Below are positions 30,689 through 63,900 of a stretch of 64,000 bases of DNA, piece by piece. The notes beneath the pieces are model-generated. The model worked only from the letters and a program-made list of their open reading frames with translations, was not told where the DNA came from and searched no databases. The DNA comes from Amoebophrya sp. A120 (taxonomy: Eukaryota > Protista > Dinoflagellata). A program made the translations under genes and the position numbers. The DNA lies in assembly GCA_905178155.1 (NCBI GenBank), contig CAJINV010000003.1, positions 1,421,557 through 1,485,556 on the forward strand. The letters are read 5' to 3'. Numbering within the stretch: the first letter of the stretch is position 1; the number at the start of each line of letters is the position of its first letter.

Positions 30689-33600
30689 ATGACGGACCCG
30701 TTTGCCGCGGTTGCCAGCGCCTCCGGCTTGCCGGAAGTCAAAGCTGCGGCCCGTGCTTCATCGCGGACGCAGGGTGCGAAGCAGTTCTTTGATGTGCTCA
30801 AAAACGAAGCCGCCGGGGAAAGAGTGGAGCAGGCAATCTTCGCTTTGACGAACAATGCTGACGACAAAAAGTATCTATTCGCCTCTTGGACAATGCATGG
30901 TTTTTGTTGACATTTGCATTACTCCGAAAGCGGGGGTCGTAGGGTCCGGGCTGCCGAACCCGTGGAGAACTTGCGAAAAACTCGGCTACGCGTGTTTCTT
31001 GTCTAGAATATTAGAGGCTGCCGGCGGTCTTTCAAATATGATGATGATCCCGATGATGCAGCACTCCGCGAAAGTGACGCGGGCTTTCGCGTTGAGACTT
31101 CCCGTTACGCCTGCGACTGCTAGCCGGCGCGCCGTTTTGCGCCGAGGGGCCTCTGTGTGTCCGCGCCGCGCGCCCCTCCTCATCTGTAGTTGCCCGCGCC
31201 AAGTCTTGTAGGCAGGCTGCCGGGGCCGTCCGCTTGCGCCTTTGGTTTCCTTGGCATTTCGTTGGCCACATGCGCGCGATCTGCGCACTTGCTTCGCAAA
31301 GAAGTTGCTGCAGCACCATCGTGTAACGTACGTTACACGATGGCGCTCTGCTTGTTTGCCTTATCGCTTGCCGGCCTAACCAGGGGAGAGAGCCCTGCTT
31401 TTGGCCTGTCCATGGCACCATCGTGAGTAAAGTTAGCCACGACGGAAATGCGTTTGGTTGTTTTCGCAGCTTCGGGCGCACTGTGCTACGCCTGGGAGTT
31501 AAGGCCGGGCGGGGTGGCTAACGGCTCCACAGGCGTGCCAGAGGCCCACCAGAGCAAGGCAGCTTCCAGCTGCGTGGCGCGGTTTGGGCGGTTGTAGATG
31601 AGGCGCCGCGGTTGCAGCCTGGCGCCCTATTACCCAAGAAAACCGGCCACGGCTCTCATGCGCCAGAACTTGCGCCCGAACAAACTTGATCCAGAACTTG
31701 TTCCAGAACTTGTTCCAGAACTTGTCTCAGAACTTGGCTCAGAACTTGTCTCAGAACTTGCCAGAGTGGAGCAGGCAATCTTCGCTTTGACGAACAATGC
31801 TGACGACAAAAAGTATTCGCCTCTTGGACAATGGTTTTTGTTGACATTTCCAGCGCCCGTGCTCTCTGCTCGCTCGAACAAAAGATTGACCGACGTTCTA
31901 GTACCTCATTGCTGCTAGCCGTGGCTGTCAATTCATCTTGCCAATTCCGTTCCAGCATTCATTTGAAGAGAGCCCACTATCTGCAAAAACAAAATCAAAC
32001 AGCTACCGTATGCGCATACGGCAAGTCATCGGCGTGTTGAAGCAGGAGAGGTTCGGGGTGCTGCGTGAAGGTACCGAAAGCTTTTTTTTTACGCACTGTG
32101 TAGTGGGTTTGGGTGGCGTCGCATGGATCAACAATGGGATGGCAGCGTGCACCAAACTGACTGTATAAGTTCAAATAGTGATAACCATAACTAGTGCGTT
32201 GGAAAAACTACAAAAACTATAGGTATCGTTCGCGATGTGGTCGATCTTCGTGACCTGGTAACCACCAAAGTCACAGCAGCAGCGGTCAAGCCCGCATACC
32301 TGAACGAGATCAAAGAGCGGCTTAAGGACAAAGAGGTACTTACGGACAGAGAATCCATTTCTTTGACGGGTCCGTAGTCGCATCCGACTTCGAAGTGAAT
32401 ACTTATTTTGTCCGAACGCAAATCTAATTCTTCAACAGGTCATTTTCCAAACCAAAAACGTAAAAACAGTCGTCGCAGCAGGGCGGATCGCCATCGACGA
32501 CGGGGAACCATTCGAAAGCTTCATCGCCGGAAGGAGATGGGACAACGTCGGATGCCGTGGAAGCAAGCAAGGCAGCATCGGCGTCTTCTACGGCACCAAA
32601 AGCGCAGATGCCGCAACCACCGGCTGCAGCACGCGTGGCGGAGGTAGCACAACAACCCGCAGCGCGCGCCCCACCAGCAGCACCTTCCACCGCCACAGCA
32701 CCACCCGCGGGAGCGGGACCTCCCGCGCCAGCCGCTACAAGCAGTCCGTTTGGTGCCATGGGGCCGCCTCCGCCAGTTGCAGCATCGGCGCCAGCACCGG
32801 AACGCGAGAGTACCGCCACCTCGGGGGGCACATCTACTCCCCCGGTTCCAGCGCCAAGTGCGTTTGGTGGACCACCACCGTCCGCGGACGGCAGTAAAAG
32901 TTCGGTTACAACCCCAGCGGCACCGCCCGCGCCGCCCGTGCCGCAGCAACAGATGATGAACCCCCCTCCCACTCCGGTGTTGCAGACAAGCAAGAAGAGC
33001 CAGCAGCAGGTCCCTCCACCGCTCGCGACCTCCCAATCCTCCCTCATGCCCGTCGCTCCGCCACCCGCCACAGCGGGAGCAGCAGGTAGTCCCTCGCCGG
33101 CAAGTGCGACGTCGCAATTTCCCGCGTCAGGAAATCCTTCTCCCGCCTCCGCGGCGCCCCCGTCGGTATTAACAGAGCATCCGTCCTATCAAGTGTAAAA
33201 ATGTCTGGGTCTGGAAGAATGCAAGATTTGTGATGCAGGTTTTCCATGACCCATGAGGTCTGGAATGCGAAACCCAGCATGACAGATTCTTTGCGGTCTC
33301 TATCATGCCTTTCCCGCATGGGAAACTCCCTCTCAACTTAGTCAAAAGCGATAGGAAGGAAAGGAAAGTAGTGAATCGCGCAAATTAGATAGAGAGGATC
33401 AAGAATGGCGTTTCTAGTGCCACGCTTCAAGCCACCGCCGAAGAAGGAGAAAAAAGAAGAGGTGCGAAAATTAGACAGGCTGAGCACGCTCCTGGAGGAA
33501 ATGGAAAGGGATACAGAGAAGCTGCGAGAAAAGATAGAGAAGGAAAAAAAAGACCCAAATGAAAGAGCAACGGTAGCCGAGCTAATAGAAAAAAGGGAAA

Positions 33601-36600
33601 ACGACACAAAATTGACAGGGAAGGCGAGGCCAACCATGACGATCGATGAGATAAATAAAAGGAGGGGAAGCATGAAAATGCGTATACTAAAGAACCTGAT
33701 AGAAGTGCGGAGGAAGAGAAAGACACCCATGACAAAGTGGCTGCGTAGGACGCCGGAGAAAGACGCATCAGGAAAGGCGCTAACAATGAAACAGAGACAG
33801 CATATAGCGAGGGCAATGAGATTGAAAGCGGGGGCGGAAAAAATGAAAAAGCGATTTGCCGCAGCGATAGGAAGTGAGGAGACAAACACGGAGCTGGAGG
33901 ACGAAAGAGACAAGAAAAGGGCGCTAGGAATAGTCCGTCTAAGGAGGATGAGCAGAATACAGTGGAAGATACATATCGGCGATTACATGAGAAGGTGGAG
34001 GGCGCAGAATAAGAAAAAGAAGAAGGCAAAGGCTCTGCTGAGTAAGGATAGAAAAGAAATAATCAATACAAACTCGAAGAATGCACGGAAGAAACTAGCG
34101 CACGCGCTCGAGTCGGAGGAAGGATACAGGGAGTGGCAGAAGCGGGCTCGAGCGCTAATAGAGACGAAATCGTATAAAGGGAACGAAGCCCTAGTTAGCT
34201 TGTCGCGGGTCGAAAGATTAGAACACGAAAAGAAGAGAAAGCAGCGGGCTGCACAAGGACAAGCAAAGAGGATGAAAGAAGCTCGGAAGAGGGAAAATAA
34301 CACACAGAGAGCAGACCGGCTGCGGAAAATTCGGGAAAGGAGAGAAGAAGCGGACAAAAGGGCGACGATGAGGAGCGCGGGTGGTGGCTGAGGGAAGCGT
34401 GCAAGTCAACAAGAAAAATTGGGTCGATGAAAAGATAAGATCTAACTAAGGGAGAGAATAGAGATCAAAAGGAAAACAGTTTAGCAACAACAAAAGAGAT
34501 CAGTAAACCGCAGGGCACCGACTAAAAAGATGGTAGAGAGGTGCAGTGTGTTCAAAAAATATAAGATGACCAAAAAACAAAAAGCAGCGATGAAGTATAT
34601 TGGTGAAGCAGAGAGAAGGCGTCAGCTTAGAGCTGTAGACTGAGAAGAAGTAGTAGACTTTTTGAAATGGCGATGAATAAACAGGAAAGTAGCGACCTCG
34701 TGCATTTTATGTCAAGTTTTTAGTATTATTTTGTTCCCTTTATTCGAAGAGGGTAGAATAGTAAACAGCTAGCGTAGCAATAGTAGGAGTAGACGGCTCT
34801 GATAGTCAAAAACAGTTAAAAATAATACAAAATAGTGAAGACAAGATGGACGGGAACGAAAGAAATGAGGATAGAAAAGTGCAGGAAAGCCTGCTACCGC
34901 GTGAAGCACCGGAAAGACGAGACGATAGCAAGGAAAGGACGGGCGCAGAAGAAAGGGAAGGCGAAATGGGAGAAGAAAAAGAAGATTGCAACGACAACGA
35001 GGAGGAGCCGGGCGGATTATGGAAAGGAGAAACGCAAGAAGAAACGGGGGAAGAAGAGAAAAAAGAAAGAGATGATGGGCAGGATGTTCTAAGAAGAGAG
35101 CGACATATGTTCTGGAACATAAACGGGGTTAAGCGCCTGAATGCGATTAGACTAGTGAAAGCTTACAGAGATATAGTGCCAAAAATTACAGGGGCGAGCT
35201 GCGCCGAGCTGAAGACCGCCGCCCTGACACAAGATCAGGCAGCCTTCAAACATGTAGAAGAGGAGATGAAAAGATTAGGAATGGAGGGGAGGCCAGGGAT
35301 ATACTTCGCAGCCGCCACAGACATGAAAGGCGTGGCGTCAGAAATGAACTCGGGAGCCGTAGGGATAGTATACACAGACGAAATGAAGAAGCTACCAAAA
35401 AAGACAATGAGAAAGGAGATTTTCCGAAGGGAGAAGGGGGGCGCATTCTTCCAGAGAGATGTGACAGACAAGGAGGATATACTATTATGGATGATCGCAG
35501 CGGAGGACGAAAGAGGAATGCTAGTGGTCGCGTTCTATCGGAGACCGGCAAAGGACACACCGAAAGACTGCGAAGAGGTAGCGTATATAAGGAAACAGAT
35601 GCAGGAAATGACTTCAGCGCTCGAAAAAATGATAGAAGAGGCAGGAATAGCAATACTGGCGGGAGATCTAAACTGTCAGTATCAAATTGATGAAGGAGGA
35701 AAGGTGAAATTTGAAAGGGAACGCACAGGAGTGCAAAAAGTCTACTTCAGCGAAATAATAGAACCGATACAGAAGATTTTCAACAAACACGCTGAAACGT
35801 TAACAACAGGAGGCCCAACATGCTTCCGAAACCCGGAAAATCCGACAACGATTGATATAGTAGCGATAGCCGAAAAAAGGGCAAAAGTTGTGGCGAAGAC
35901 CTGCGACAGAATTCAAATACCGCGGACAGTAAAAGAGGAAAACGGAGAAGACAAGGAGGCAGAGGGGGAGAATAAAGAAGAGGAGTCGGACCACGTAGCT
36001 CTGCTAGCAGACATAGTGTGGATCCCAGAGCCCGAGAAACCCACAGAAGAACAAAAACAGAAGAAAGAAAAAGAGCAAAAGAGGTGGAAATTTAACGCGC
36101 GCTATACGCTGATGGTGCCGACAGTTGAAAGCTCAAGGCAGCGGATCGAGATCATAAAAGGGAAAGAAAGACTTCAGAAGAAAAACCCTGTCACGCAGTT
36201 GGTGAAATGGCCGAGAAAGTCGGTGACGTTAGAAAGACTACAGCAAGTGATGGAAAAAGCAGGGACGGTGCCAGAAGATCGTAGGAGCATGCTAGGGATG
36301 CAAAAATGGCTGATGGAGAAACTAGGAGAGGCAGGCGTGCTGAAATTAAAAGAAGTACCGAAACAGGACGCGAATTACGAAAATTGGCAGAAGAAGAAAA
36401 AAGAAGAGCGAAAAACGCAGGAGAAAGAAGAGAAGAACGAGGAAACCGCACGACAGCAGGAGCAAAAATCAAAACAGGACGAAATGGAAAAGGCATGGCT
36501 GGCGTCATTCGCAGAGAAGCCAAAGAAGGAAGAGAAAAACGAGAAAGCGGTTTATGAGACGGCTAGAAAGGTGAAAGAAGCTGTGTGCGGGGTAGGCAGA

Positions 36601-39600
36601 GGAATGCCGATGGGGGAGGCGAAAGAAGTAACAGTAGGCGGCACACTAGTGCAAGGGGTGGAAGCAGCGACAGAAAGGATAGCGAGTAGCCACCTCCTCA
36701 AGTGTGAATTCGTGAGAAAGCAAAATGACAAAAAGCACACGTATGACGGAAAAGAGCTCGAAAAAGCGCTAAGACAGCTCACGCAAGCATGTAAAGAAGT
36801 AAAGAGCATACGATTTACGGGGCCACAATTACAAGCACATGTCTCAAAGTTAAACAGTGAAGCAGCAGGCATGGATGGGCTCCGACAAGGAATATACCGC
36901 GCCCTCACACCAGAACAATACCAAGTGCTAGCAGAGGTCTTTAATAGGTTTTTAGAAGAAGTGGAGGAGTATGAGATGAAAAGAAATGAGGGAAGGGGGC
37001 CGAAGCTCCTGGAGGAGCACCTCAATGCGGCGCAGGTGGAACTGTTGAAAAAACAAACAGCAGCAACAACGGCAATAGAAAAGATCCGGACCGTGATACA
37101 GGGGACAGCGATAATGAGGGTGTTGCTGAGCGTAGTGGTATATGAAATGGTGCGGGTAGCCGACAAAAATGACGCATTCACCCGATGCGGTTCAGCATCA
37201 AAACCAGGAGCAAGCTGCCAAGCCACAGCGCTGCAGGTCTTGGAGACATGTCACGAGGGGGAAGAGAGGGGCGAAGCGGAAACACCGGACGAAAGAGAGG
37301 AGGGAGGTAATGGGAAGGGGAAAAGAAGAAAGGAGACGGTAGTCTTTGGGCTAGATGCGTCCAACTATTTCAACAATATAGGGCTACCGAGGGCAGTAGC
37401 AGCATACAGAGCTGCAAAACTACACCCGTGTTTCATAAAGTTGATAATAGTAACAGCGTGGACAAAGGATTTATGGATCAGAAACGGGGATTGTTACGGA
37501 CATGTACTAAGACACCGCGAACTCATTCAGGGCGCAGTAGAAACGATGTTAGCGGGGACCCTGATTTTCCTCCCAGGGGTAGAAATAATCGCGGAATTCC
37601 TCGAAGAAATCTTTAATGAAGACGGTAGGGCTGAAGAGGAAAGGCTAAAAATAGCAGAAGCAAAGATGAGAACGAGGATTAAAAGGCTTTACAAAGGGGG
37701 CGACATCGATACAACTTTCCCCGATTACAATGTCAGAGAAGAAGTCGACGAGATCTACCTCAAAGAAGCCCAGCCAGTAGTCACGGGATACAGAAAGGGA
37801 GAGAAGGTAACGACAGAGCAGGGAAAAAGAAAGGTGAATGAGAAAAGAAAAAGGGTGGAGACTCGATACTACTCAGGAACACTCCCCGGAGACGGGAAAA
37901 GAAGATGGACCCTATGCGTGCAATACGTGGACGACGGCACAGTTGTAATAAAGTTCTTTATCGAAGATATACAAATAGTAGCGCGCGCGCTCAGAGCAGC
38001 ACGCTGGGCATATGAGGAAATATACGCAACCGAAGGACAATTCTTGGCACCACAGAAGTGCGAAGTTGCAACGTCGATAGAAGACCCGCTGAAGGTAAAC
38101 GTGATCAGACAGGCCTTCCAGCCTTTCGGGATTTTGTTCGAGGAAAAGATATTTCTGAAGATTCTGGGGATCAAAATAGTGCCAAAAGACAAAACGGAGC
38201 AAGCCAAGGCCCTGCGGGGGCAGGTAAGACAAAGTATAGGGATAGGACAACACTTGGCGTACCAAGTAATGGCGAAAAGGGGAAGGCTCAACGGCGAAGA
38301 ACTCACGTGGGTAGTGCAGGTCTTCTTCGTGTCGGCAATGATATACTTCCTGCCAGTGATGCATTTATATTTCGACCTAGGAGACTGGGCGGAATTGATG
38401 GGCGAAATGGCGCTGACAATAGCCGAAACATTGGGAATGACAACGGAGGCAGTGGAAGAGCTGATGGCCCGAACAGAAACAACGGCGGAGACATTCTATA
38501 GGGTAGTGTTCGGGATGAATTTACTCGGACTAGCTGACCCGTACACGATGGGACTGAAAACGTTGCGGGCAACGGCGCAGGCAAACTACCTAACAGACCC
38601 GGCCTTGTTCGCACCATTAGCAACGACGCCAGTGAAGGTAGTAGGCGAAGCAAAGGCGGGCATCCCGAAAACAGAAGAACGAAAAATGCTGAAAAGAAAA
38701 GAAGCCGACATAGCACTGCTGCGGGCGCTGAAGGACGGCGCGACAGTCAGGCTATCGCCGGGGAGTGACCTGCGTGCAGTGGGGATCGTGAAGGAGAGAA
38801 GCGCGCGGGCCCCCCTAAGGGTAGAGGATCAGTATACACACAGGGGGAACGCGGGATTGGTAGTCAGCAGGAACAGAAAAGGAGGCCTCGGGAAGAAAGG
38901 TCAGAGCAATAGGATGCAAAAAATATGGGTGAAGCATGCCGGAAACGAAAGAAGTACAACCGTCACAGTACAGGAGGCAAGTGAAAGGACGGAGACACAC
39001 CTGAGGACGATAGAGACAAAAGTGGAGCACCTAAAGACTGAAATAAGAACAGAGGAAAGGACTTTCGTGGCATATTGCAACAACGCAATGAGGGCCATAG
39101 AAATAGTCACAGAGAAGAGGAAGAAAGAAGGCGGAGCGGTGCAGATTATACTGCTAGACTACAACGAGTTAAGGGAGAAGACCAGAGGGATACTACGCAA
39201 AGGGCACGGAATAGGCTTGGAGCTACAGGAGACAATAGAAAAAGCCGAAAGTGAGGACCCGGGCCTAAATATAGTAACGAGAAGGGAAAAAGGAAATGCA
39301 AGCAGAGCAGAAACGATAAGAAATATAGACGGAGGGACAAAAGAAGAGATACCGCTCAGGGTGGCCAATGTGTTAAATCACGACAATGAGTATACGGACT
39401 GGGTGCGGTTCGACTTTGGGACGAAGCGGATTCCACTGAAACCGGTGTGGGAATGGCCGGAAATGTCAAAAATAGAAAGGCAGGTATACATACATAGGAA
39501 AATGAAGGATGAGGAGACAGAAGGGGACAAAAAGAAAGAAAAGGCAGAAGCTGGGGATGGCGAGGAAATGAAGCAAGGCTTAGGAGAGAAAGACAGCGCG

Positions 39601-42600
39601 AAATCACAAAAGAGGAAAGAAACGAAAAAGAACACCAACACAGAGAGGGTAGGAAAGGGGAGTGGCGCTGCAAGTAGTCAAAGCAGAAATAGCCGGGAAA
39701 ATGTAGAAAGAAAACAAGAAGAAAAAGGGGAAGAAAGAAGGGAAGGAGAGACACTCTCAGAAACTATACTGCGACTAATCGAGAAAGAGAAGAAGAAAGC
39801 AGAGGAAACTGGTGACGAGATGGCGCAGGGGGCATTCAGAATAATCCAGAAAGCGACGAAACTGTTGCAGGAGGTAGAGGAGGCGAATAAAGAAGATGAT
39901 GGTAGAAAGTTAAACGAAAAAGAAAGGGGGCGGGAGGAAGGAGACCAAGAAGAAAGGATCAGCGAAAACGGAGAAGAAGAAGAAAAAAAAAGCTTCTACG
40001 AGGCGCAAGAATATGAAGGCACTCGGAGAGGATACGTGTTTAAAAGAGGGGCGATGGGACAGGGATACTATATAGATCAGGGTCCAGAAGAGGCAACGCG
40101 AACATTTTTTCGGAATCTGGTGGCGTGGGGGGAAGAGGAGAAAAGGGACGCGATTAATAAGGAGCGGGCGGAGGAAGGTCAAGACGAAAAAGGGGTGGAC
40201 CAAGAGCAGCAAAAACGGAGAAAAGTGGAGAAACAAGACAAGGAAGCGAGCCAAAACGGTGGTAGCGAGGACGAAAAAAAGAAGCGAACGACGGAGGCCT
40301 CCAATTTCCCCACAGTCGAGAAATTAATGGCAGATGACCCCATGACATTGATGCAGAAAGAGAATGTACAAAGGGAGAAGGAGAAGAGGATACAAGAGGA
40401 GAAGAGGAGGAGGAGGCAAAGGAAGTACGAAACTCCTATGCAGCGAGAACTAGCCCAAATGTATAGAGCCCTAGAAAAAGAAAATAGTGATGGAAAGTGA
40501 ATGAAGAAAGAGAAAAAAGTGACTGCAATACGTTTATTTCTTTTGGATGAGATTGATGAATGGATAGCAAAGTAGAGGCAATGTGAGGCCTTATACATGA
40601 ATGAAATAAAGGAGCAAAGAAGACACAGACCGGGGCTCAAAGCGAAAAAGAAAATGCGGGGTGTTCTGGCGGGTGCAGAGGGAAGAGCGTAGACAAAAAA
40701 TGTAACAGAAAAGAGCGAAAAAAAATGAGGCGACTGCGTATGGTTCTTCTTTCGACACGTTCCACGCCAGCCCGGAGGGGTGCGGCGATGCTAATCATTT
40801 CGTTCCCGCCAGCCGTAAAGGCACGGCGCTGCCTATCCTCCCCTCGTACCGCCGAACCGCATGCGCTGACGCATTAGGAAACGAAAAGAAAAAGAAAGAG
40901 AAGAAAGAAAAACTATATAAAAGAAGTGGTGCCAGGGTTGCTATTTTAAAAGACTGCGCTAAGGCAGCACCCCCCTTCCCCAAGGGGTCCCCCCGGGGCG
41001 GGCGCGATGGCGGCTCTGCGAATGCGGAGCTCCGCGGGCCGTTTCTATGGAAACGCATATAAAAGGGTGCGGGAAGAAGATCGGCAAAACGTGTCTGAAA
41101 GGGACACGCCGTTGGGTTGCCCGCCATCGTGATAGGATCACCGTGTCTGATCATTAGACCCCCAGTATACTGTTTAGCGCGCAACCGGCCACGCACGTAG
41201 TCCTTCGAGCAAGTTTGTAAGACTAACCCATCAAGGCAAAACTGGAACTCCACCTTGCTCGCGGGCTTGGATGGTAAGGCAGGTCAGCCACACATAGCGC
41301 CCACTGGTTGTAGTCATGCGTAAGCAATCGATAGCGGTTTGGCAGGTGCAGCCGGGTGGTAGTTAGGAAGTGGACCGTGTCTCCACCTAGGGGTATTGGC
41401 AGAGGCTAAATCTGTTCTAACGCCCAGGTATTGGCAGAGGCTAAATCTGTTCTAACGCCGACCCGCCAGGAGTTAAATGGTACTACTACTACTAACTTAG
41501 TCAAAAGCGCCACCTAGGGGTATCGGCAGAGGCTAAATCTGTTCTAACGCCCAGGTATTGGCAGAGGCTAAATCTGTTCTAACGCCAACCCGCCAGGAGT
41601 TCTGTTCTAATGGTATGTAGTGAGGTCACCGAACGGTTCTAACCGGGGAGTTTTTTTGCCAGCCAGACAGCAAAACGGCCGCCAGTTTTCAAGCGGGCGG
41701 AAGCGTTTTTGGACATAAAAAGTTTTCACTTATCAAGCGGCCGGGGCTTTGATAGCAAACAAGCCCGGTCGAAAACTATCGATTCGCACTTGATAAAACG
41801 ACGCAGGGGAGCCGGCAAAAGGGGCGCCCTTTTGAGGCGCCCACCGCCTTGGTTTCTGGCGATTTGGGGCGCCCAAAAAGGGGCGCGCAAAAAACGCGCC
41901 CAAAATCAGAACAGCGAAACAGCATGGCACGGCCGCGATTTCGGAGCATTTTGGGCGGCCGCGAAAGCGGCCGCCTTTTCGCCGGCTTTAGAGCCTGGGA
42001 AGCATCGCAAAAAGCGCCGGCGTGAAAAATAAAAACGCGAAAAAGAAAAAGCGCCCCAGACGCGCAAAGCCAATCCGCATGCTACGGGCCCGATTTTTCT
42101 TCGCTTTTTGGGCGCCCCCCGTGGCACCCGGATCGGCCCCATAGCATGGGGGCTGGCCTTCGGAAAGGAATTTCGGGAATTTGCCAAAATTTGCGATGTT
42201 TATGAAGCGGCCGCCATACCGTGCGGCCTAACGTTACTCGCGGCGGTATGGTGAGCCCATAAAAAGCAAAGCCACGGCCAAGGCGATGGCCGGCAAGAAA
42301 ACGCCCACGACCTCACTACCTCCGCCCCGGCGGCTATATTTGGTACTACTACTACTAACTTAGTCAAAAGCGGACAGCTTCTGGCACTCACGCAACACAG
42401 ATTTTTGCATTATTTAGATTTAGCATGACAACTTCAAATCTTCCAGACCCAGACATTTTTGCATTTGATACGTCCGCAAGTAGCGTCATCACGGCAGAAT
42501 CGTCGCGCGTGAAACCGTTGACGCCATCAAAGCAGCAAACGGGCGGGGACCCTTTTGGTGATGTGGATCCCTTCGGAACTCCGGGGCAAAATCCGTTTGG

Positions 42601-54967: not shown

Positions 54968-57312
54968 ATGGCGTCTTCCGGAACAACCAGCCAGAGTGAA
55001 GAATCGCGGTTGTTGAAGGCCGCGGGGGCGGCAGTTGAGGCACGTTCGCTTTCCTCAACCGAAAAGCAGGAAGTAGTACAGAAGCCAGCGTCGTCCGATG
55101 AGACGTGGCTTGGGCGACATGTCCGAGAGCGGCCAGTATTGACAACAATTCTGTGGATACGCCGAGGAAAAGGCTACAGCTCTTGACTAGACGGCCTTAG
55201 AAGTGTGGCTGGATGAACATGAACATGTTGCTTCGCCTGCTTTGCATGAGAGAAGAATAGGGTTACTTATGATACTGCTCCGAATGATAATGATGTATAA
55301 TTAAATCTTGTTCATGGTCTCATCAGCTGAAGAAAGTAGCCCACAGTCAGGAAGAAATTTCTTTTTGCTGAGGATGGTAGATGCCGTTGATGCTCGCGGC
55401 AAGTGCCGGATTGATAGCATTCAACAAGACGCTGGTGAACGGTCCCTTTCCGTTTGCTATGCAAGAAAAAAACTGTGTAACAGGTGTAACTCTGTAATGC
55501 AGAGCATGCAACAGTAGAGTTAAGTACGCCTGTCATGCGCATGCCAGACGACCATGAAGTCCTCTTTTCGTGTGTGTTTTCCCTTACACGCCACGAACTA
55601 CATTGGCAGGCTTTCTGTGTCATGTAGAGCAAATTTTTGATGCTGTCAGGCAAAGTCACACGAACACAGTTTTTTTCTTGGATATTTACCACCGCCCTGA
55701 CGTGCTGGCACATGTTCTGCTGCACTCTGTTCGCCTGGACCATGTTTGCGTTGCAGCCGGATTGCTTTCCCACGATGAAGACGCTGCGGCAGCAAGCGGA
55801 TGCGCACCAGACACGGCAGAGTCTGCTTTTCGTGGTGCCCATCGCGGTGTGTTTTAGCTCGTCCGTGGTGTTCTCCAATGTTGCGTACAAGTACGCTTCC
55901 ATCGCTTTTCTGCAGATGATGAAGGAGCTGAATGTGGGGATCATCTACTGTTTCTCCCTTCTCGCCGGGATTGAAACGGTGCAGTGGCGTCTCATCCTCG
56001 TGCTCACCGGGCTTGTCGGCGCCAGTTACTTTTCCATCACGGGGGAGGCCGATTTCGTGCTCCTGGGCTTCCTCGTGCAGGGGGCGTGCCAGCTGCTCGA
56101 GTGCACGCGCGTGGTCGCCACCAGCAAGGTACTCTCGACGCTCAGCCTGGGGTTCACGCGCATCGACGCCATGTCCTTCATGCTGGTCATGTCCCCCGTG
56201 TCGGTCCTCTACCTGTCCGTCGTGCTCTGGATCCGCTGGGACCCCTTGACGCAGGTATGAGATGAGTGCACGACTCCCCCTCGTCCCCGTGCTTAGTACT
56301 CATGCAACATGAAGACCCCTAAGCCTAATCGGCTCTTTGCCTCTTGGCATTACTTGCATGACGCGTTGTTCATTCTGGCGGCCCAAACAGAAACAGCACG
56401 ACAATCCTATGCAATTTTTACACGCAAAGCCTCCATTCTTGGCGACGCTACTTGTATCGCTGTTCACCACGCAGGGGCCCTACAAAGGATGGGGAGCAGG
56501 GGAGTTCTTGTGCACTCTCATAACAGGAGCGGTTCGCGGAGAACTTTTCCCTGCTGGCGGGAAACGGGCTGGTCGCCGTGTATTGCAAGAAAAAAGTGCT
56601 ACAGTTACACATTGTGTTGCAAGACCGGCAACACAGAGGACCTTTCTCATGCAGGAAATGCTTGGGAGCCTCGTTTCCTTCCTGTTTTCCCTTATGACCT
56701 TCGCATTACAAGTTTTCTCTGCCACACAGAGAAAATTTGTGATGCAGAAACTCCAACAAATGTGTAACTGTAACACTTTTTTGTCGTGATACCGTGCTGC
56801 TGAACATGATTATTGTGCTGACGATGACCGCCTTCTCGCCATTAACCATGATCGTGGCTGGAGTCGTCAAAGACGTCGTCATCGTCTCCGCGGGCGTACT
56901 GCTCTTCCACGAAGTCATTTCCGCACAGCAGTGCTGTGGCTTCACCCTGCAAGTCTGCTGTGTAGCCTGCTACTCCTATCTGCGCGCGTCGTCGTCGTCG
57001 TCGTCCGCACCTGGTGCCAAGGCCGAGCCGCCGAAAGAAGTAGTACGTGGAGAGGATCTTCACGCGGCGGACGAAGAGACCAAAATGCTCCTCCGTTCTG
57101 GGGAGCACCCGGTCGTGTCGACGGATGATGACGGCAGCGGAAGTGCGTCAAGCTCTTCTGGCTTGACTGGCTCTGTCGCGGGCGGGGACCTAGTGGATCA
57201 TCGGCACCATCAAATTCGCTCCAACAAAAAAGCGCCGCTGGTGCGCGTCGACAAGGATTATGGTACGACGAGCAGTACTAGCCATGGCATTTCCGCCGCG
57301 GAGCAAGTTTAG
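54968..57312 (+). CDS. Triose-phosphate/nucleotide-sugar transporter (TPT, DMT superfamily); first exon uncertain
   Basis: SAGLIAFNK, FPFATALTCWHM, SNVAYKYASIAFLQMMKE, NGLVAVLLN, SPLTMIVAGVVKD after removing two introners and canonical introns. Confidence 0.87.
55458..55684. mobile_element. TIR introner F
   Basis: TATGCAAGAAAAAAACTGTGT / ACACAGTTTTTTTCTTGGATA; TSD TTTGC/TTTAC with one mismatch. Confidence 0.87.
56581..56791. mobile_element. TIR introner G
   Basis: 33-bp TIR with 5 mismatches; TSD CCGTG (56576-56580/56792-56796). Removal gives GLVAVLLNM. Confidence 0.9.
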
Positions 57313-57967
57313 ACTGATGGATCTACTTGCAGTGGTCCTCGTGCAGTTGCCGGAATGGGCAAGGCATCATACCTAGGACTATAATTTCCACACGGCATCC
57401 GTATCTACAAGTAGACGGCTCTTTTTAGTGTGTGTCTGTTTTTTTGAGGATAGAGCCTTCTTTTTAATGCAATCTGATCAACATCAAATGTTTCAACGTA
57501 CAAGTCAGTGGTGAGATAGCAAAAGCCCAACGTTCTTTCAGCTTCACAATGAACACTGAAAAACAAAAAAAGTGGATGCCAGTCAAGAAAACCAAGAAAG
57601 CAGCTTGATTATGGCTATGCGGGTCCTCAACGGAAGTTGGTGAATTAATGGATCTCTAAGAAGCTACAGATGAAAAATAGAAGTCGTTCTCCTCTTCGAA
57701 GCTGCACATTGGAGAGATTCTCGTTGAAGGCGAAGCGAGCGAAAACTATACCGATGACAAAGACAGCAGCGCGAGCTGCGGAACATCAACCCGTATAATT
57801 TTTTGTTTTTCCGAGCCCAGCTCGAAATAATAATCATCATCGCGTCCAAATTTCGGACGAGTGGGTGGACGAGTGTACACAAGGAACAAATTTTCTGTGT
57901 CGGTAAAAATAAAACGATCTTTTCTGTAGCTACTCCCGTGCGTCGTGAAGACCGTCGTGCGTTCGTG

Positions 57968-60900
57968 ATGGGGAACAGTTGTGGGGGATGCTTCCAGGGG
58001 ATCGAGCAGTCCCTCGCGACAGCTAGCGGGGGGTCTACTTCTTCGTACCAGCCAACCGGCAGCTCGTTCCAGCAGCAGCCCCGGAGCGTGTACGCTCTCG
58101 AGCCCGCACCCCCCGCTGGTTCAGCCACACCACCAGCAGCAGGCGCACCACAGACAACGCTGCAGCCACAGACGGTAACTTTTGTCCGTAAGAAGTGGAA
58201 AGCGGGCTGCTTTCCACTTCTTACGGACAAAAGTCGGGTAGGGCGGAGGCCCCTGGCTAGTGGCCTAGGGGCCCGCGAGGGAGGGCCTAGCTGCGTTCCA
58301 ACAAGGGGGATGAGAGGTCAAAAGCCTGGCCGCGAGGTCGCCTCCTCCACAAGAAAGCTTGCATGCGAGCGGCCCCACGAAGAAGGCGGCACATGTCGAA
58401 AACCACTCGCGCGCCCCCGGGAGGGCCTGGGCGGCCCGGGTCCGGTCGGTCGGGCGGGGGCGGTTCCGCCCGGCCTGACCTTTGTAGGCCCGTGGCGAGG
58501 AGCCGCCCCGCCATTCGCTCTTTTTTTAAAGCCCTGCGTTTGCAAGAGGGGGTGGCAGCGTTTTTGTTTTGGGCCCTTTATTTCTCCCCTTCCTATCGAG
58601 GGGTGGCCCTGTTGCATGCGCGTCACTGTTGCATGCTGCAGTTTCGGCTAGGGTGGCGCGGGGGTTGTTCTCGGGGGGCAAAGGCGCGCACCCCCGAAAA
58701 CCCCGAACCGGCCCAGGCGGCTTGCCCCAGGCATTTTCGCGAAGATTCTCGGCGCGTTTTTTTTCGCGCTGCCAAATAAAATCTCGGTCCACCCGCCTGG
58801 CCACGTTGAAAAACCCCAAGCGGAGGCCCGCGCGCTGCAGGGAATCTCGAACCACAGGCGCAGCCGCTTCGGGGAATCTCCAGCGAAATGCCGCCGCGCT
58901 GCGGCAAATCTCGGGCCGCCCACGTCCTTGGCCTTTGAAGGATCTCAGGCGAAAGGCCGCCGCGCTGCGTAAAGTCCCGAGCCGCCCCAGCGCGCCTGCT
59001 GGCAAATCTCGGAGCGGAATCTCCGCGCCGGTATCTGGCAACGGAGAAAAGGCCGCGAGATTCTCCTTCACGCGGTGAAAAATCCCTAAGCGCCCCCGGG
59101 TGCGAACGGTATCACGGGGGGGGCTTTGGCAATTTTCGCCACACCACACAACGGTATCATGGTTCAGCCACACCACCAGCAGCAGGCGCACCACAGACAA
59201 CGCTGCAGCCACAGACGGTACGAGCGTGATTCACCCACCTGATGACGGATTCACCCACCTGTGATTCACCCCTCACCCACCTGTCCCCTCGATTCACCCA
59301 CCTCCGATCGTGTGGGTGTGTTTCGTTGCGTTTTAATTTATCTAGTATAAACTATCCTACTCGACGACACTAACTATGCCACACAACCGCGACCCGCTGG
59401 CTGCATCGCCCAGCGACTGGGCGCCTACAAGGACAAGCAAGCGTCTCGCGGTTAACTCGTAAAAGGAAGGAGGCAGGCTTTTGAAGGAGGTGAGCCTTGA
59501 AAAGGAAGGAGGCAGGTTGTTGAAGGCGGTGAGCCTTGAAAAGGAAGGAGGCAGGTTGTTGAAGGAGGTGAGCCCTGAAAAGGAAGGGCGCAGGCTGTTG
59601 CGGAAATGAACTCTGGTTAGAAAAGGAAGGAAGCACGCTCCTGAAGGAAATGGACTTTGAATGCGTGGCGCGCCGGGAGTACTCCGACTGCCTAACGCAG
59701 ATCTTAGAGGCAGGATTGATCGTATCCTGATTGAAAATGTCCCCACACCAGAGTTGTCATGCAAATCTGCATGGCAACAAAGTTTCTCATGCGGAGCCCC
59801 AGGAGAAGCGTTTTCATCTAGTCGCGTTTTGCAATTTGTGATGCTAGAATCACCATCATGTGCTAGATCTGTAATGCTGCTCAGCTAGTACTTAAAAACA
59901 CGACTGCAATACAAGGACAGATTTGTCATGCGAAGTAACCAAAGGCGATTGATTTGTCTAGCAGATTTCCCATTTTGACTCTGGTATAGGGACGTTTTTA
60001 CACAGGATAGATCGGCGTTTTCAAAAGCAACGTGTCTCGAGCCACCACCACTCGCTGGTTCAGCCACACCAGCAGCAGCAGGCGCACCACAGACAACGCT
60101 GCATTAAGGCTTACAGAAATTAGTTCCTACCCTTGTTCCCGAAAGCTTAGGTTTGAAAAAAATGGAAACAAACCGCGAGGGGGGTTTAGCTTGCACACTC
60201 TCGCAGTCGCTTGGAATGGCCGAAGGCCATGAAAAATGTGGCTGGGAAGCAGCCAGCGCGCGAGCTTGGGGGAGAACGGGCAGCCGTCTTCGGCGGGGCT
60301 GCCGCGCTTCTCCTGCCGGGCTGCCAGGAGTGGGCCTTACGCTCCTGCTCGTTGAAAGCGCGTGGCTTTCAAGTGCCCTGCTATTGGAAATGAGTTACTT
60401 GCATTGCCTTGGCATAGTAAGTATTTTGTTTGTTGTGCTAGTATATTGCAAGCAATTCGTGTTCAGCGCCAGGTCGTTAAAAGCAGCGCGCCTTCAATAT
60501 AAGGGGTCGCCCAGCAGCTGCCACACTCTAGCCTTTCGGAAATGCGTTCCCAAGGTTTGCCGGAAATCCCGGGAGCATATTTCGGCAAGGCCCCCACGTC
60601 GGCTTTGTACTCTGGCCGGCAGTAGGTCTGAAGACCTCGCGCAAAATCATCCGACGTCGGGGAGATAAAGAAATGCGCCCCTGGGATTTTCGCCGCGTCG
60701 AGACCTGGGATCATAGTTCTGCAAAACCCCCTCGTAAGATGATTCTGCGCGGGTTTTTCTGTGTTTCAAGATCAGAACACAAACTCGAGTAGCACTCTCG
60801 TGCTCTGGCCTGCAGAAGTGTGCTCCTAAGATTTCTTGATATCGAACTCAAATCCGAGAATTCCTCAGATGCGAGCTCACATCCGAGAACTCCTCACATG

Positions 60901-63900
60901 TGAGCGCACATCCAAGAGTTAGAAGGTCAGAAGAACTGCGCAGCATAATCTTACGCGACAGGCTTACAGCAGTGCGCTCTTTGGATTTGTGTGTTGCGCC
61001 TCCAATTGCCTCACTTGGAGTCGCGGTTCAAACTTTCACACGCAGAGCGCGGCGATTCGCAAGTTTAGCCGAACCGGCGTAGCGATTTTGTTTCTGGTTT
61101 TCTGACATTGTGTGCCCATCACAGGACTCCTGTGATAGGCACGCAACACTTTGGGGGGTGCCAGAAATAAAGCTGCCGCGCCACATCGGCTGTACTTGCG
61201 AACTTTGTTGCCTTGCGCGTGACAGTTCGATCCGCGTGTCCAAGCGAGGTGTATGTAGACGCAACACGCAAACCCTGGGAGCGAATTTCTGTGAGTCACC
61301 TGAATAAAATTGGTGCTCAGAGCGGTTTTGCTGGCCAGGGCACAAATCTTACGCAGGCAGCCTACAGAAATTAGGTCTCAGGACCCCACATCCGAGAACT
61401 TCTCGGATGGGGCTTCACATCCGAGGAGTTCCCGGACGTAGACTCACATCTAAGAACTCCTCGTGTGTCAGCTGCAGCCAGGCCACACCACCACCAGCAG
61501 GCGCACCACAGACAACGCTGCAGCCACAGACCGTCGAAGTCGTTATTGATCGCGTCCTTGTTTGCTCGATTGGAGTCGAACTTCCGGACTTTCGTATGCG
61601 GTATGCCGTGATTTATTACATTTTGAATTCATTATTTATGAATTTCTTTTTTTTTGTAGAGAAGAGACAAGAGGTAGAGGCATACCTGCAAAAATTAAAG
61701 TTGCTGGTGCTGTAGTACGGGTATGTACTGCATTCACTGACAATATCGGGGCGAGAGATTGTATTTAAACAACGTAGACTCACTATCACTACCTAGGTAG
61801 TAGAACTACTTATCTTTGTCCTCTTCCTCTACCAAACAGACATGTCGGGGAGTGACGAAAATTATCTGTCGGTGGAAGATCCGCACGTTTCTGAGAACGG
61901 CGGACATTTAGTTGCCCAGAATCCACCGAACCATGATCGCGACCGCAACGCGCCGGAAGCAGAAGCTGTCGCAAGAAACAAGAAGGGAGATAAACGTGTG
62001 AAGTTTGCCATGTTTTCGTCGCCCCCGCAGCAAGAACATGAGCTAGGGCGGAAGAAGGAAATTTCTTTCGAGAAACAACAACGTAAGATTCTCCTTGATT
62101 ACGAAAAAGGTAAGTACAACACCCAAGCGACTTTCGGGACCCATGACGGCAAGATCGTCGGGCGGCTGAACCAGTTGCTGGAGAAGCAACGCGGTAAACA
62201 ATCTGTTGCGCAGACTTCTGCCTGCGGTGGTTCTGCGAGCAGCTCCTCTTCGTCTTTCCAAAATAACCCGCAGCAGGCGCACCACAGACAACGCTGCAGC
62301 CTATCAAATGTAAAAATGTCTGGGTCCGGAACAAAACAACTTGTCATGCTAAATCTGAATCATGTAAAAACCTGTGTTGCATGATTACCAAAAGCTGTCC
62401 ACTTTTGACCTAATCGAGAGGCAGTTTCTCATGCACGATAGGCATGATAAAACTCTCACAGAATCTGTCATGCTATGTCCCTCGTACCAGACCTCGCGGG
62501 CCATGGAAAACCTGCATGACAAGTCTGGCATTCTTCCAGACCCCGACATTTTTGCAATTGATACGACCACCACGACGACGATATTCGGACTGGAAACCAC
62601 AACAACGACAATCGCACCGGATGCGCCGTATCCCAACAAAGGTAGAAGTGGTTTTTGTCTATGCTGCTGGTTCTTGTTTGTTTGCGTATATATTCTGTGC
62701 ATAGAAGATATCATGGCGCAAGAACTGTTTGCCGCTGCCGGCTATTACTTATGTAGCAAATAATTATTTTCGTAAAGGGAAATCAGAAATCAAAACTGCA
62801 CAGATATGCTCCTGACAAAGCCGAACTACTTTCCGGACAATTTGAAACACGAGAACATCATGGTCCCGCTGGAGGCGATGGCCAGCAATCAGCCCACCGT
62901 GGACTACCTCTTTGGCTACCGGTACCACACCGATGGGGAAGAGGGGTACCTGGCGCAGGCGGGGAACCTGCGGAAAATCATCTACCGAAACGTATGACTT
63001 GCTCAAACGTTACAATCTCAAACGTTACAATAGAGTCTGGAATTTGTGTTGCATGATGGGCATGACAGACTCGCACAGCGTTCCACCTTTTGCAATACAA
63101 ATTTTCCCAGATTGTAGTGGGGTTTGGAGCTCCGGAACTTGTCATGCGCAGCCCTATGAGAGTTGGCTAGATCATGCTCATCATGCAAGACAAATCTCAG
63201 ATTCTATTGTAACGTTTGAGATTGTAACACCCGAGCGGGTTATAAAACGACCCCCGGTACGGTGTGATGAACGTGATCAACGACCCGCGGAACGTGTATC
63301 AAATGTAAAAATTTCTGGGTCTGGAAAATGCAACCTGTCATGCTAAATCTGAAGCATGCAAAAATCTGTGTTGCATGATTACCAACCAGCCACACCACCA
63401 CCAGCAGGCGCACCACAGACAACGCTGCAGCCACAGACACGTCCTGTCGGGAACAAGATTGGCGCAACAACTACATCTCCGGTGAGCAATGCCGCACTTG
63501 CTCCGTCCACACCCGACGAGCAGAGTAAGACCTCGTTCACAGCGACCGGTAGACGAAAAGCATTCCTGATTGGTATCAACTACTACGGGACGCAGGCGGA
63601 GCTGGCGGGCTGCGTGAATGACGTGGAGAACATATCTAGCCTGCTGATCCGAAAATTTGGTTGGCGGCAGAGCGAAATCCGCACGCTCGACGACGACCGC
63701 GGCCGCAGCTACCCGGCGGTGCACCCCACGCGGCAGCGCATCCTGGAGTCGTTGCAGTGGCTGGTACTGGACGCGCAGCCCGGGGACACGTTGTTTCTTC
63801 TGTACTCCGGCCACGGCGCCCAGGAGGTGGATCCCAACGGATACGAGGAGGACGGAATGAACGACACGATTCTGCTATCCAAGAAAGAAAACTGTGTTAG

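Follow-up and report, generated by a model that had tools for sequence, protein, structure and literature searches.

How does a coding exon come to stand six times around five unrelated stretches of DNA, and does the gene survive by splicing them out? Both questions are raised by a metacaspase gene of Amoebophrya sp. A120, located near the end of the 64,000-nucleotide stretch analyzed here (the window, to which all positions refer).

Array layout

We observe six exact copies of a 28-nt core, starting at 58137, 59180, 60076, 61495, 62271, and 63402, with five inserts of 982, 814, 1378, 734-738, and 1085 bp between them. Copy 1 (58096-58177) is the end of the original first coding exon of the metacaspase (57968-58177, starting MGNSCGGCFQGIEQ), and is followed by copy 2 (59160-59220), copy 3 (60035-60103), copy 4 (61482-61535), copy 5 (62270-62301), and copy 6 (63387-63438), which lies inside a restarted metacaspase frame; exon and copies are all on the forward strand. 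None of 100 shuffled sequences reaches six core matches even with three mismatches allowed, and the longest word occurring six times is 28 nt, against 6 to 7 nt in 100 of 100 Markov simulations. Core count, shuffles, and simulations, together with the DNA and RNA contigs described below, bear out the alternation of six copies and five inserts that a sequence-only reading had proposed. Its statement that all six copies encode ATPPxAGAPQTTLQPQT holds in part, since copies 3 and 5 are cut short and leave the string incomplete.

The target is duplicated on both sides of every insert (5/5), over 38 to 82 bp in target coordinates, and all five duplications cover the one core while their end points differ. 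Copy 2 equals copy 1 at 61/61 bases, and copy 3 departs from copy 1 at five of its 69 bases, in every case 5' of the core. The CCA/GCA variants are ordered by position as had been stated, grouping copies 1 and 2, copy 3, and copies 4 and 6; copy 3 differs at four further upstream places, and the short copy 5 does not allow a safe assignment. With 32 bp, copy 5 is shorter on both sides than the neighboring copies and falls within the extent of both, so that serial target duplication on one molecule would need trimming. The fold of the target is unremarkable relative to shuffles (z of 0.02, -0.79, and 0.01). The 28-nt core, looked for as another allele in JGI metagenomes, is absent from them. 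Two distant metacaspases turned up in the search for other alleles and were left out of the analysis.

Support from DNA and RNA contigs

The array is real and no assembly chimera, the outcome that the sequence-only reading had named as fatal to its proposal. The analysis covered seven of the 11 listed sequencing runs (X1, X3 to X7, and X9). Mismatch-free contigs of the DNA run X1 cover 56753-58146, 58148-59189, 59191-59518, 61502-62299, and 63409 onward; they end exactly where the assembled array predicts, and the lengths of the first four (1394, 1042, 328, and 798) are those expected from its 31-mer graph. These contigs contain five of the ten copy/insert junctions, each reaching 30 letters into the repeat, one below our bridging rule of 31 letters. 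RNA contigs cover four further junctions, namely, insert 2 to copy 3, insert 3 to copy 4 (30 letters), copy 5 to insert 5 (spliced), and insert 5 to copy 6, while the junction of copy 3 with insert 3 has one base of cover among the matches listed. Inserts 1 and 4 are each found in one unbroken X1 contig (58148-59189 in the case of insert 1) at a depth of 41, with flanks at 39.8 and 43.8.

It is thus extremely improbable that the array arose from gap filling, or from mixed alleles joined through the repeat, in the assembly or the library: junction words occur in raw-data contigs of the expected lengths at flank depth, further junctions are crossed by RNA from another study, and alternative alleles in a mixed culture would not all attain the depth of the flanks. 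What favors such an artifact is that the published A120 assembly, in the available text of PMC7789003, retained Illumina scaffolds with gap closing, that no single record covers the whole array, and that X1, perhaps not independent, may be the source sample of the window's assembly.

Content of the inserts

Local alignment of the 10 insert pairs gives scores of 18 to 28, similar to the 21 to 28 of shuffled controls (five shuffles per pair), and comparison of the inserts with each other yields no common ends, tails, or sequence. Inserts 1 to 3 are assigned no strand. Insert 1 (58178-59159) is 982 bp of 64% GC in which no coding content was recognized, and opens with a perfect 26-bp inverted repeat with a 5-nt loop (58178-58234), the longest perfect hairpin in the window (the next has 14 bp). 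A phage search for a foreign origin gave no match, and the hairpin arm is absent from the viral contigs. One sub-threshold, miRNA-like Rfam match on the hairpin was put down to chance.

Insert 2 (59221-60034; 814 bp) consists of short repeats, a minisatellite with a 39-bp unit (59461-59661), and an introner (59718-60009) that is removed in one RNA contig (joint 59717^60010, run X3 only). Insert 3 (60104-61481; 1378 bp) is part of a dispersed repeat and is predicted to fold into a long imperfect palindrome at about 60960-61300. Other X1 contigs align to its region with 8 other letters in 218, and a loose end before 60104 in runs X4 and X6 indicates another copy with a different 5' flank. We do not take this loose end as an element terminus, since any other copy would diverge there.

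Inserts 4 and 5 are read on the forward strand. Insert 4 (61536-62269; 734-738 bp) holds the upstream region and 5' coding part of an unassigned gene with its ATG at 61842. Among longer proteins, the search for homologues of the insert 4 protein returned only the chimeric A120 protein itself, and the Atlas gave no match. Insert 5 (62302-63386; 1085 bp) is composed, in order, of introner A (62302-62563), an exon, a GT-AG intron (approximately 62642-62803), an exon, introner B (62988-63244), and an exon, and closes with an unspliced 5' remnant of introner C (63297-63385). Its three spliced joints are seen in 4/4 RNA runs, and its introners have family matches in the window. No homologue of the insert 5 exon was found beyond one spurious repeat-protein match lacking a BLAST alignment, and a Pfam search of the insert proteins gave nothing over the cutoff.

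Because the inserts retain introns that RNA removes, they derive from DNA: they are unspliced genomic DNA. That they are mutually unrelated and do not come from spliced mRNA, as first read from the sequence, is upheld. No insert has the matching termini of an introner or MITE, the introners being cargo. Sought in the X1 contigs at 90% likeness, a second copy of inserts 1 and 4 was not found in these filter-thinned contigs of one run, whereas insert 3 is repeated there and inserts 2 and 5 are mixed. Of the sequence-only reading's expectations, that of intact donors elsewhere fails for inserts 1 and 4, and the contrary case it had named, inserts that are the only genomic copies of complete expressed genes, applies to these two in part, in that X1 shows no second copy of them. 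As far as could be judged, the inserts are gene fragments and not complete genes.

Transcripts and reading frames

None of the listed runs is recorded as RNA; X3 to X6 are taken as such because their contigs skip the GT-AG intron and the introners. They are contigs of one sample, with rare forms dropped. In 4/4 of these runs, contig ends agree with a chimeric RNA that is spliced and leads in from insert 4. The spliced contigs start at 61648-61710 within insert 4 and cross copy 5 and insert 5, and a contig of 63405-63875 is spliced onward. A bridge into copy 6 and the protease domain is present in at least one of the four runs among the matches listed, while contig ends of X4 and X5 fit a graph lacking the bridge from insert 5 to copy 6. 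Some RNA may join copy 5 directly to sequence after copy 6, or the bridge may have been lost at low depth. The X3 to X6 contigs give no cover upstream of the repeat in exon 1 or on insert 1, to which we attach no weight. A joint at 58165^62567 was rejected as an exon 1 splice, since copy 5 accommodates its 26 letters just as well and is the copy that agrees with the contig geometry. The raw RNA reads of X9 (56 reads, all 90-95% alike) concern introners only, and X7 is patchy.

Translation of the RNA-defined joints gives a chimeric frame of 272 amino acids (61842-63347, forward strand) built from insert 4, copy 5, and insert 5, identical letter for letter to NCBI A120 protein P0122. In this frame copy 5 is not read as metacaspase, nor is insert 5 read in its own longer frame. 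The metacaspase frame restarts on the same strand at an ATG in the introner C remnant and runs through copy 6 into Peptidase_C14 (63356-63875); its product is P0002 (438 amino acids, 100% identical), the gene of which extends past the end of the window. P0002 matches PF00656 (Peptidase_C14) with an E value of 4e-32, and its SGHG and DACHSG, the motifs of the His-Cys dyad, align with orthologues, which identifies it as a metacaspase. The exon before the array is 41% and 47% identical to the N termini of the orthologues P0017 (A25) and P0012. The protease frame has lost this conserved first exon and begins 8 bases after the stop of the 272-codon chimeric frame, and is therefore probably poorly translated or made with a new N terminus.

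The sequence-only reading had proposed that the whole array could leave as one GT-AG intron, here of 5.2 kb, restoring the full metacaspase whatever built the array. The in-frame donor ACG|GTAAC and acceptor CAG|ACA do exist and leave the reading frame open, another GT/AG pair (58118^63390) is by inspection also in frame, and the coding sequence is intact on either side. The proposed splice would place the start of the downstream RNA contig at 63436 and the end of the insert 4 contig at 62299, but in 4/4 runs we observe 63405 and 62300/62301. Joins downstream of the variant base are contradicted in 4/4 runs and joins further 5' by the X6 contig 63356-63431, and the NCBI models split the locus as the RNA chimera does, into a chimeric gene and one starting in the introner remnant. 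The motifs thus stand, and as the regular fate of the transcript the giant intron is very unlikely; rare or stage-specific splicing out of the array may occur as a minor form. The locus is a gene disruption with a new chimeric transcript rather than a demonstrated case of intron creation, and the RNA, which fits that transcript, does not support the array as a route of intron creation and growth.

Origin of the array

On balance, the five genomic pieces that split the metacaspase were probably captured one after another by end joining at a site that broke repeatedly. A pair of cuts or nicks separated by a few tens of bases, whether on one chromatid, two chromatids, or homologues, would leave overlapping left and right arms, between which a loose fragment of about 1 kb would be ligated; the duplicated target could later be cut again and take up the next fragment. 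If the arms came from different chromatids or alleles, the variation among the copies and the undersized copy 5 would be explained. Since X1 shows no second copy of inserts 1 and 4, the fragments were probably cut out of other loci or derive from another haplotype. Repeated ectopic capture at one site with long target duplication, the core of the sequence-only reading, agrees with the flanking duplications, the unrelatedness, and the retained introns of the inserts.

We infer repeated end joining from duplications of 38 to 82 bp with variable ends, 0 to 2 nt of microhomology, and the 26-bp foldback. The microhomology could be scored at the three of ten junctions with a donor-like flank, the flanks coming from related copies that are not proven donors. 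For insert 3 it is 0 nt on the left (the loose end); for insert 5 it is 2 nt on the left, deduced from the introner's downstream direct repeat, and 0 nt on the right, where one extra base is present. Ectopic inserts in mouse show 0 to 2 bp (available text of 10.1101/2020.06.23.168138 and 10.64898/2026.02.11.705388), and the hairpin at the first base of insert 1 is within the 5 to 34 bp given for foldback inversions at broken ends in yeast (PMC11724301, available text). A second, simpler case in the window has a duplication of about 95 bp around an 844-bp insert (30821-31852), with two 4-nt indels between the copies; this example and the array are the whole base of evidence. Counting against capture, the target folds in no unusual way, and a transposon route would be in keeping with the start of insert 5, no more than 2 nt from the end of an introner, and with the repeat DNA of insert 3; that fragments moved is deduced from absence in the thinned contigs of a single run.

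Such a transposon route, in which a site-preferring transposase or non-LTR retroelement inserts elements or anchored flanks with unusually long target duplications, appears rather unlikely to us. Besides the introner terminus of insert 5 and the dispersed repeat of insert 3, it could draw on the opening hairpin of insert 1, on the many kinds of mobile introners in A120, and on a LINE-like element in the window (33335-42372) that has a 16-bp duplication and shares its site with a second, stacked insert. Against it, the inserts lack anything in common at their ends, no poly(A) or (TAC)n tail was found at insert ends, duplication length varies, insert 5 ends inside an introner, and inserts 1 and 4 are single-copy; the three introns that insert 5 keeps argue against an mRNA intermediate and do not fit non-LTR retroposition (TPRT). 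Helitrons have TC/CTRR ends and make no target duplications. With no such ends and with duplications present, they were rejected by inspection.

Template switching of the MMBIR type is unlikely too. Here a replication fork that stalled in the exon would move to another locus, copy about 1 kb there, and return slightly upstream, five times and perhaps in one event. The free left and right ends of the copies, copy 5 included, fit repeated return to an intact template, slippage could give the CCA/GCA variants, and the architecture is that of cycles rereplicating a host segment (PMC7025897, in the text available). Donors are left in place by this process and gain a copy (PMC7025897 and PMC11724301, available portions), but inserts 1 and 4 show no second copy at 90% likeness in X1 although copies 1 and 2 are still identical, and the five differences of copy 3 are many for one event.

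A wider form of the break-repair reading is doubtful: A120 would have recurrent enzyme-driven capture, perhaps SPO11 double cutting in spores expressing meiotic genes, that excises kilobase pieces from genes, ligates them into hotspots with long duplications, and re-uses the duplicated target. The resulting repeat-spacer arrays would recombine promoters and exons into new transcription units genome-wide. For break-repair capture in general, the available text of 10.1101/2025.04.10.648098 offers evidence on both sides: A120 expresses SPO11 and other meiotic genes, which favors it, and neither zygote nor ploidy change was seen in culture, which counts against it.

Relation to known systems

The component processes are already known, from mouse meiotic double cuts, Daphnia neointrons, and templated insertions in cancer. 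In the available text of the two mouse studies (10.1101/2020.06.23.168138; 10.64898/2026.02.11.705388), end joining of SPO11 double cuts across two chromatids gives tandem duplications, excised fragments are inserted nonreciprocally at hotspots, and foldback inversions occur. The array resembles these events in its duplications, ectopic fragments, and foldback, and perhaps in its microhomology; SPO11 may have a role in A120 as well. The mouse events come mostly from ATM- or MRE11-deficient germ cells and are single, with inserts mostly <400 bp (15-967 bp, median 95) within deletions, and duplications and ectopic inserts were assayed separately; A120, by contrast, carries five inserts of 0.7 to 1.4 kb fixed in a single coding site, and a duplication accompanies every one of them.

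Daphnia neointrons (PMC4202315, available text) share the insertion into an exon with direct repeats of the exon ends, enlargement by repeated staggered breaks, and parallel gains at one site. Their repeats measure 4-12 bp and the inserts are spliced out, unlike the 38-82 bp repeats, kilobase gene fragments, and unspliced array seen here. Templated-insertion cycles in cancer (PMC7025897) also string distant segments into one locus, rereplicate host sequence, and bring regulatory DNA to a gene with chimeric transcripts, and those of yeast (PMC11724301) show short foldbacks at break ends. As described in the accessible parts of both sources, donors are kept and the string returns to the host once, whereas here host sequence follows every insert and two inserts have no second copy. 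Amoebophrya introners, from the same genome, are spliced cargo in inserts 2 and 5; in the available text of PMC7789003 they form families and are bounded by terminal inverted repeats and 3-5 nt direct repeats, none of which holds for the inserts as units.

Our literature search returned no case of five captures piled up in a single coding site and no paper on this locus or such arrays in Amoebophrya (supplements and subscription papers lay outside its scope); "metacaspase" has 0 matches in the main text of PMC7789003. The available part of that source describes a lineage whose proteins evolve fast and in which many genes have no assigned function. The locus preserves, with support from reads, five fixed captures that share the same 28 bp, and their effect can be followed: a conserved gene has been cut off from its first exon, and its transcription now proceeds from a captured upstream region. 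Present evidence does not support a new way of making introns. If common genome-wide, such capture would shuffle promoters and exons without transposons and would offer a natural setting in which to study break-capture mutagenesis, known until now chiefly from mutants and tumors.

The order of repeat, captured DNA, and repeat recalls a CRISPR array in outline only. CRISPR arrays combine a constant repeat and spacers of 20-70 nt with cas genes; in A120 the repeats are coding exon of varying extent, the spacers measure 0.7-1.4 kb, and the host is a eukaryote. A search of Rfam for a CRISPR repeat gave no match. The exact 61-bp pair formed by copies 1 and 2 suggests that the 5'-most insert is the youngest.

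Layout and gene identity of the array

The array (58096..63438) alternates six copies of a metacaspase exon stretch with five inserts of 982, 814, 1378, 734-738, and 1085 bp (inserts 1 to 5, respectively). Its 28-nt core is present in six exact copies in the window (58137, 59180, 60076, 61495, 62271, and 63402), a number equaled in 0 of 100 shuffles, and the repeat copies around it are 32 to 82 bp long, with the variants among copies as an earlier sequence-only reading had described them. Pairwise comparison found no relationship among the five inserts. The frame 3' of copy 6 matches, with 100% identity, the 438-aa A120 protein P0002 at NCBI, a Peptidase_C14 metacaspase. The pre-array exon (ATG at 57968) displays 41% and 47% identity to the N termini of orthologues from A25 and another Amoebophrya; the array therefore interrupts a formerly continuous metacaspase gene. 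All three N termini share a Met-Gly-Asn start with cysteines close by, which we take to be a putative acylation-type motif. Upstream on the same strand lies a gene (55768-57312) with several introners and a hydrophobic, transporter-like frame, covered by a contig of RNA run X3 to 57522.

All five inserts consist of genomic DNA that retains its introns and introners. Insert 2 carries a 39-bp minisatellite in five copies (59461-59661), and insert 3, a member of a dispersed repeat family, contains a long imperfect palindrome with 29-bp subrepeats (60815-61463). A single unbroken contig of the DNA run X1 holds insert 1, and another holds insert 4; nothing else was placed there at 90% likeness, and no near-identical donor for either was seen in X1 contigs at that threshold, although copies 1 and 2 still agree at all 61 bases. 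Among longer proteins or cluster representatives, the only relative recovered for the insert 4 and insert 5 peptides was the chimera described below.

The array is real and unusual. X1 contigs match it without mismatches in pieces of 1394, 1042, 328, and 798 bases, plus one from 63409 onward, exactly those expected when the assembly is broken into a graph of 31-mers. Their depths (39.8, 41.1, 47.7, 40.7, and 43.8), although no measure of copy number, are similar and match the flanks, which argues against alternative alleles of a mixed culture. Five of the 10 copy/insert junctions lie inside X1 contigs, with 30 letters on the repeat side under a bridging rule of 31, and four more lie inside RNA contigs. 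No single record spans the array, X1 may be the same sample as the assembly and thus possibly not independent, and the published assembly is described as using gap closing that was checked with Nanopore reads (PMC7789003); an assembly artefact is highly improbable.

Transcripts across the array

RNA runs X3 to X6 come from one sample and were used as contigs, their RNA status being judged from spliced joints. All four contain a contig starting inside insert 4 (61648-61710) and ending at 62300/62301, a 406-nt contig in which 26 repeat letters are joined to 62567, followed by 62639^62802 (GT-AG) and 62987^63245 and continuing unspliced into truncated introner C (63297-63385) as far as 63365, and a downstream contig beginning at 63405. 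A contig crossing from insert 5 into copy 6 (63356-63431) is among those listed for X6. A simulated single read-through RNA reproduces the X6 pattern (ends 62300, 63431, and 63405; length 653). The sequence-only reading had proposed that the whole array is removed as one GT-AG intron (ACG|GT..CAG|ACA); this splice would shift ends to 62299 and 63436 and is contradicted in all four RNA runs, X6 included, as is a join inside the shared block 3' of the variant base (end 62299). With a join placed more 5', the bridge contig would stop at 63416-63418, which misfits that of X6. Speaking against a single read-through RNA, the insert 4 contig of X4 and X5 continues through shared words, as modeled when the insert 5-copy 6 bridge is missing; a skip from copy 5 to beyond copy 6, on which the protease is also read out of frame, or drop-out of the bridge at low depth may account for this.

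Translation of the read-through RNA yields a 272-aa chimera identical to NCBI protein P0122, and the P0002 ATG lies 8 bases past its stop, inside the introner C remnant. P0122 and P0002 are adjoining NCBI gene models, probably built on RNA data too, and hence count as agreement, not independent proof. One X3 contig has the insert 2 introner spliced and also crosses copy 3, and another crosses from insert 3 into copy 4. Splicing of introner A (62302-62566) uses the sites of the donor gene even with its upstream direct repeat replaced by metacaspase repeat and 2 nt kept; the exon-side direct repeat seems dispensable for introner splicing. Introner C, lacking its 3' part, is left unspliced.

Origin of the array

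In copy-1 coordinates the arm overlaps measure 61, 78-82, 41, 38-43, and 46 bp and always include the same core. Copy 5 falls short, at both ends, of what serial duplication on one molecule permits, and copy 3 shows five differences; accounting for this requires trimming, unequal exchange, or arms that derive from different chromatids or alleles. Three junctions allow microhomology to be assessed, and it amounts there to 0 to 2 nt. From its very first base, insert 1 forms a perfect hairpin of 26 bp, the only one of >14 bp in the window, which resembles foldbacks at yeast breaks, described as 5 to 34 bp. Taken together, these features lead us to lean toward recurrent staggered or double breaks at one core, at which loose DNA would be repeatedly captured by end joining. 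The capture proposed in the sequence-only reading stands, whereas its intron fails on the present RNA. A mobile-element route, to which the start of insert 5 at an introner end and, in another part of the window, a second insert stacked at the site of a LINE-like element could point, appears unlikely, and template switching, which judging from accounts of cancer and yeast templated insertions would retain donors, quite unlikely.

The array works like mouse SPO11 double cuts, reported to produce tandem duplications as well as nonreciprocal ectopic inserts that show 0 to 2 bp microhomology, like Daphnia neointrons, which are described as arising and enlarging through repeated staggered breaks (4 to 12 bp repeats; spliced), and like cancer cycles of templated insertions, in which 2 to 7 copied segments are reportedly strung into one locus. 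SPO11 is a candidate nuclease only: A120 is reported to express it, yet the same account has no zygote observed, and the target sequence has no special fold. As an intron, introner, retroposed copy, templated cycle, or CRISPR, the array fails each class on the tested features. Literature searches showed no description of the locus or such an architecture.

Other insertions in the window

At 30821-31852, a duplication of ~95 bp (exon end plus following GT-starting sequence) surrounds an 844-bp insert of 59% GC with short tandem repeats at its end; two extra 4-nt pieces are present in the left duplication copy. This may represent one event of that type, and hints that capture is not restricted to the metacaspase gene. 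At 33185-42470, an introner is split by an 8.1-kb purine-rich element, LINE-like in its layout and motifs, with 332-aa and 1911-aa frames, a (TAC)n tail, and a 16-bp duplication. Since searches with its long frame recovered no reverse transcriptase match and, in Pfam, only a weak endonuclease match (E 0.003), it may belong to a very divergent clade. Stacked at its site is a second insert (0.85 kb) in which the 3' end and tail of the element recur.
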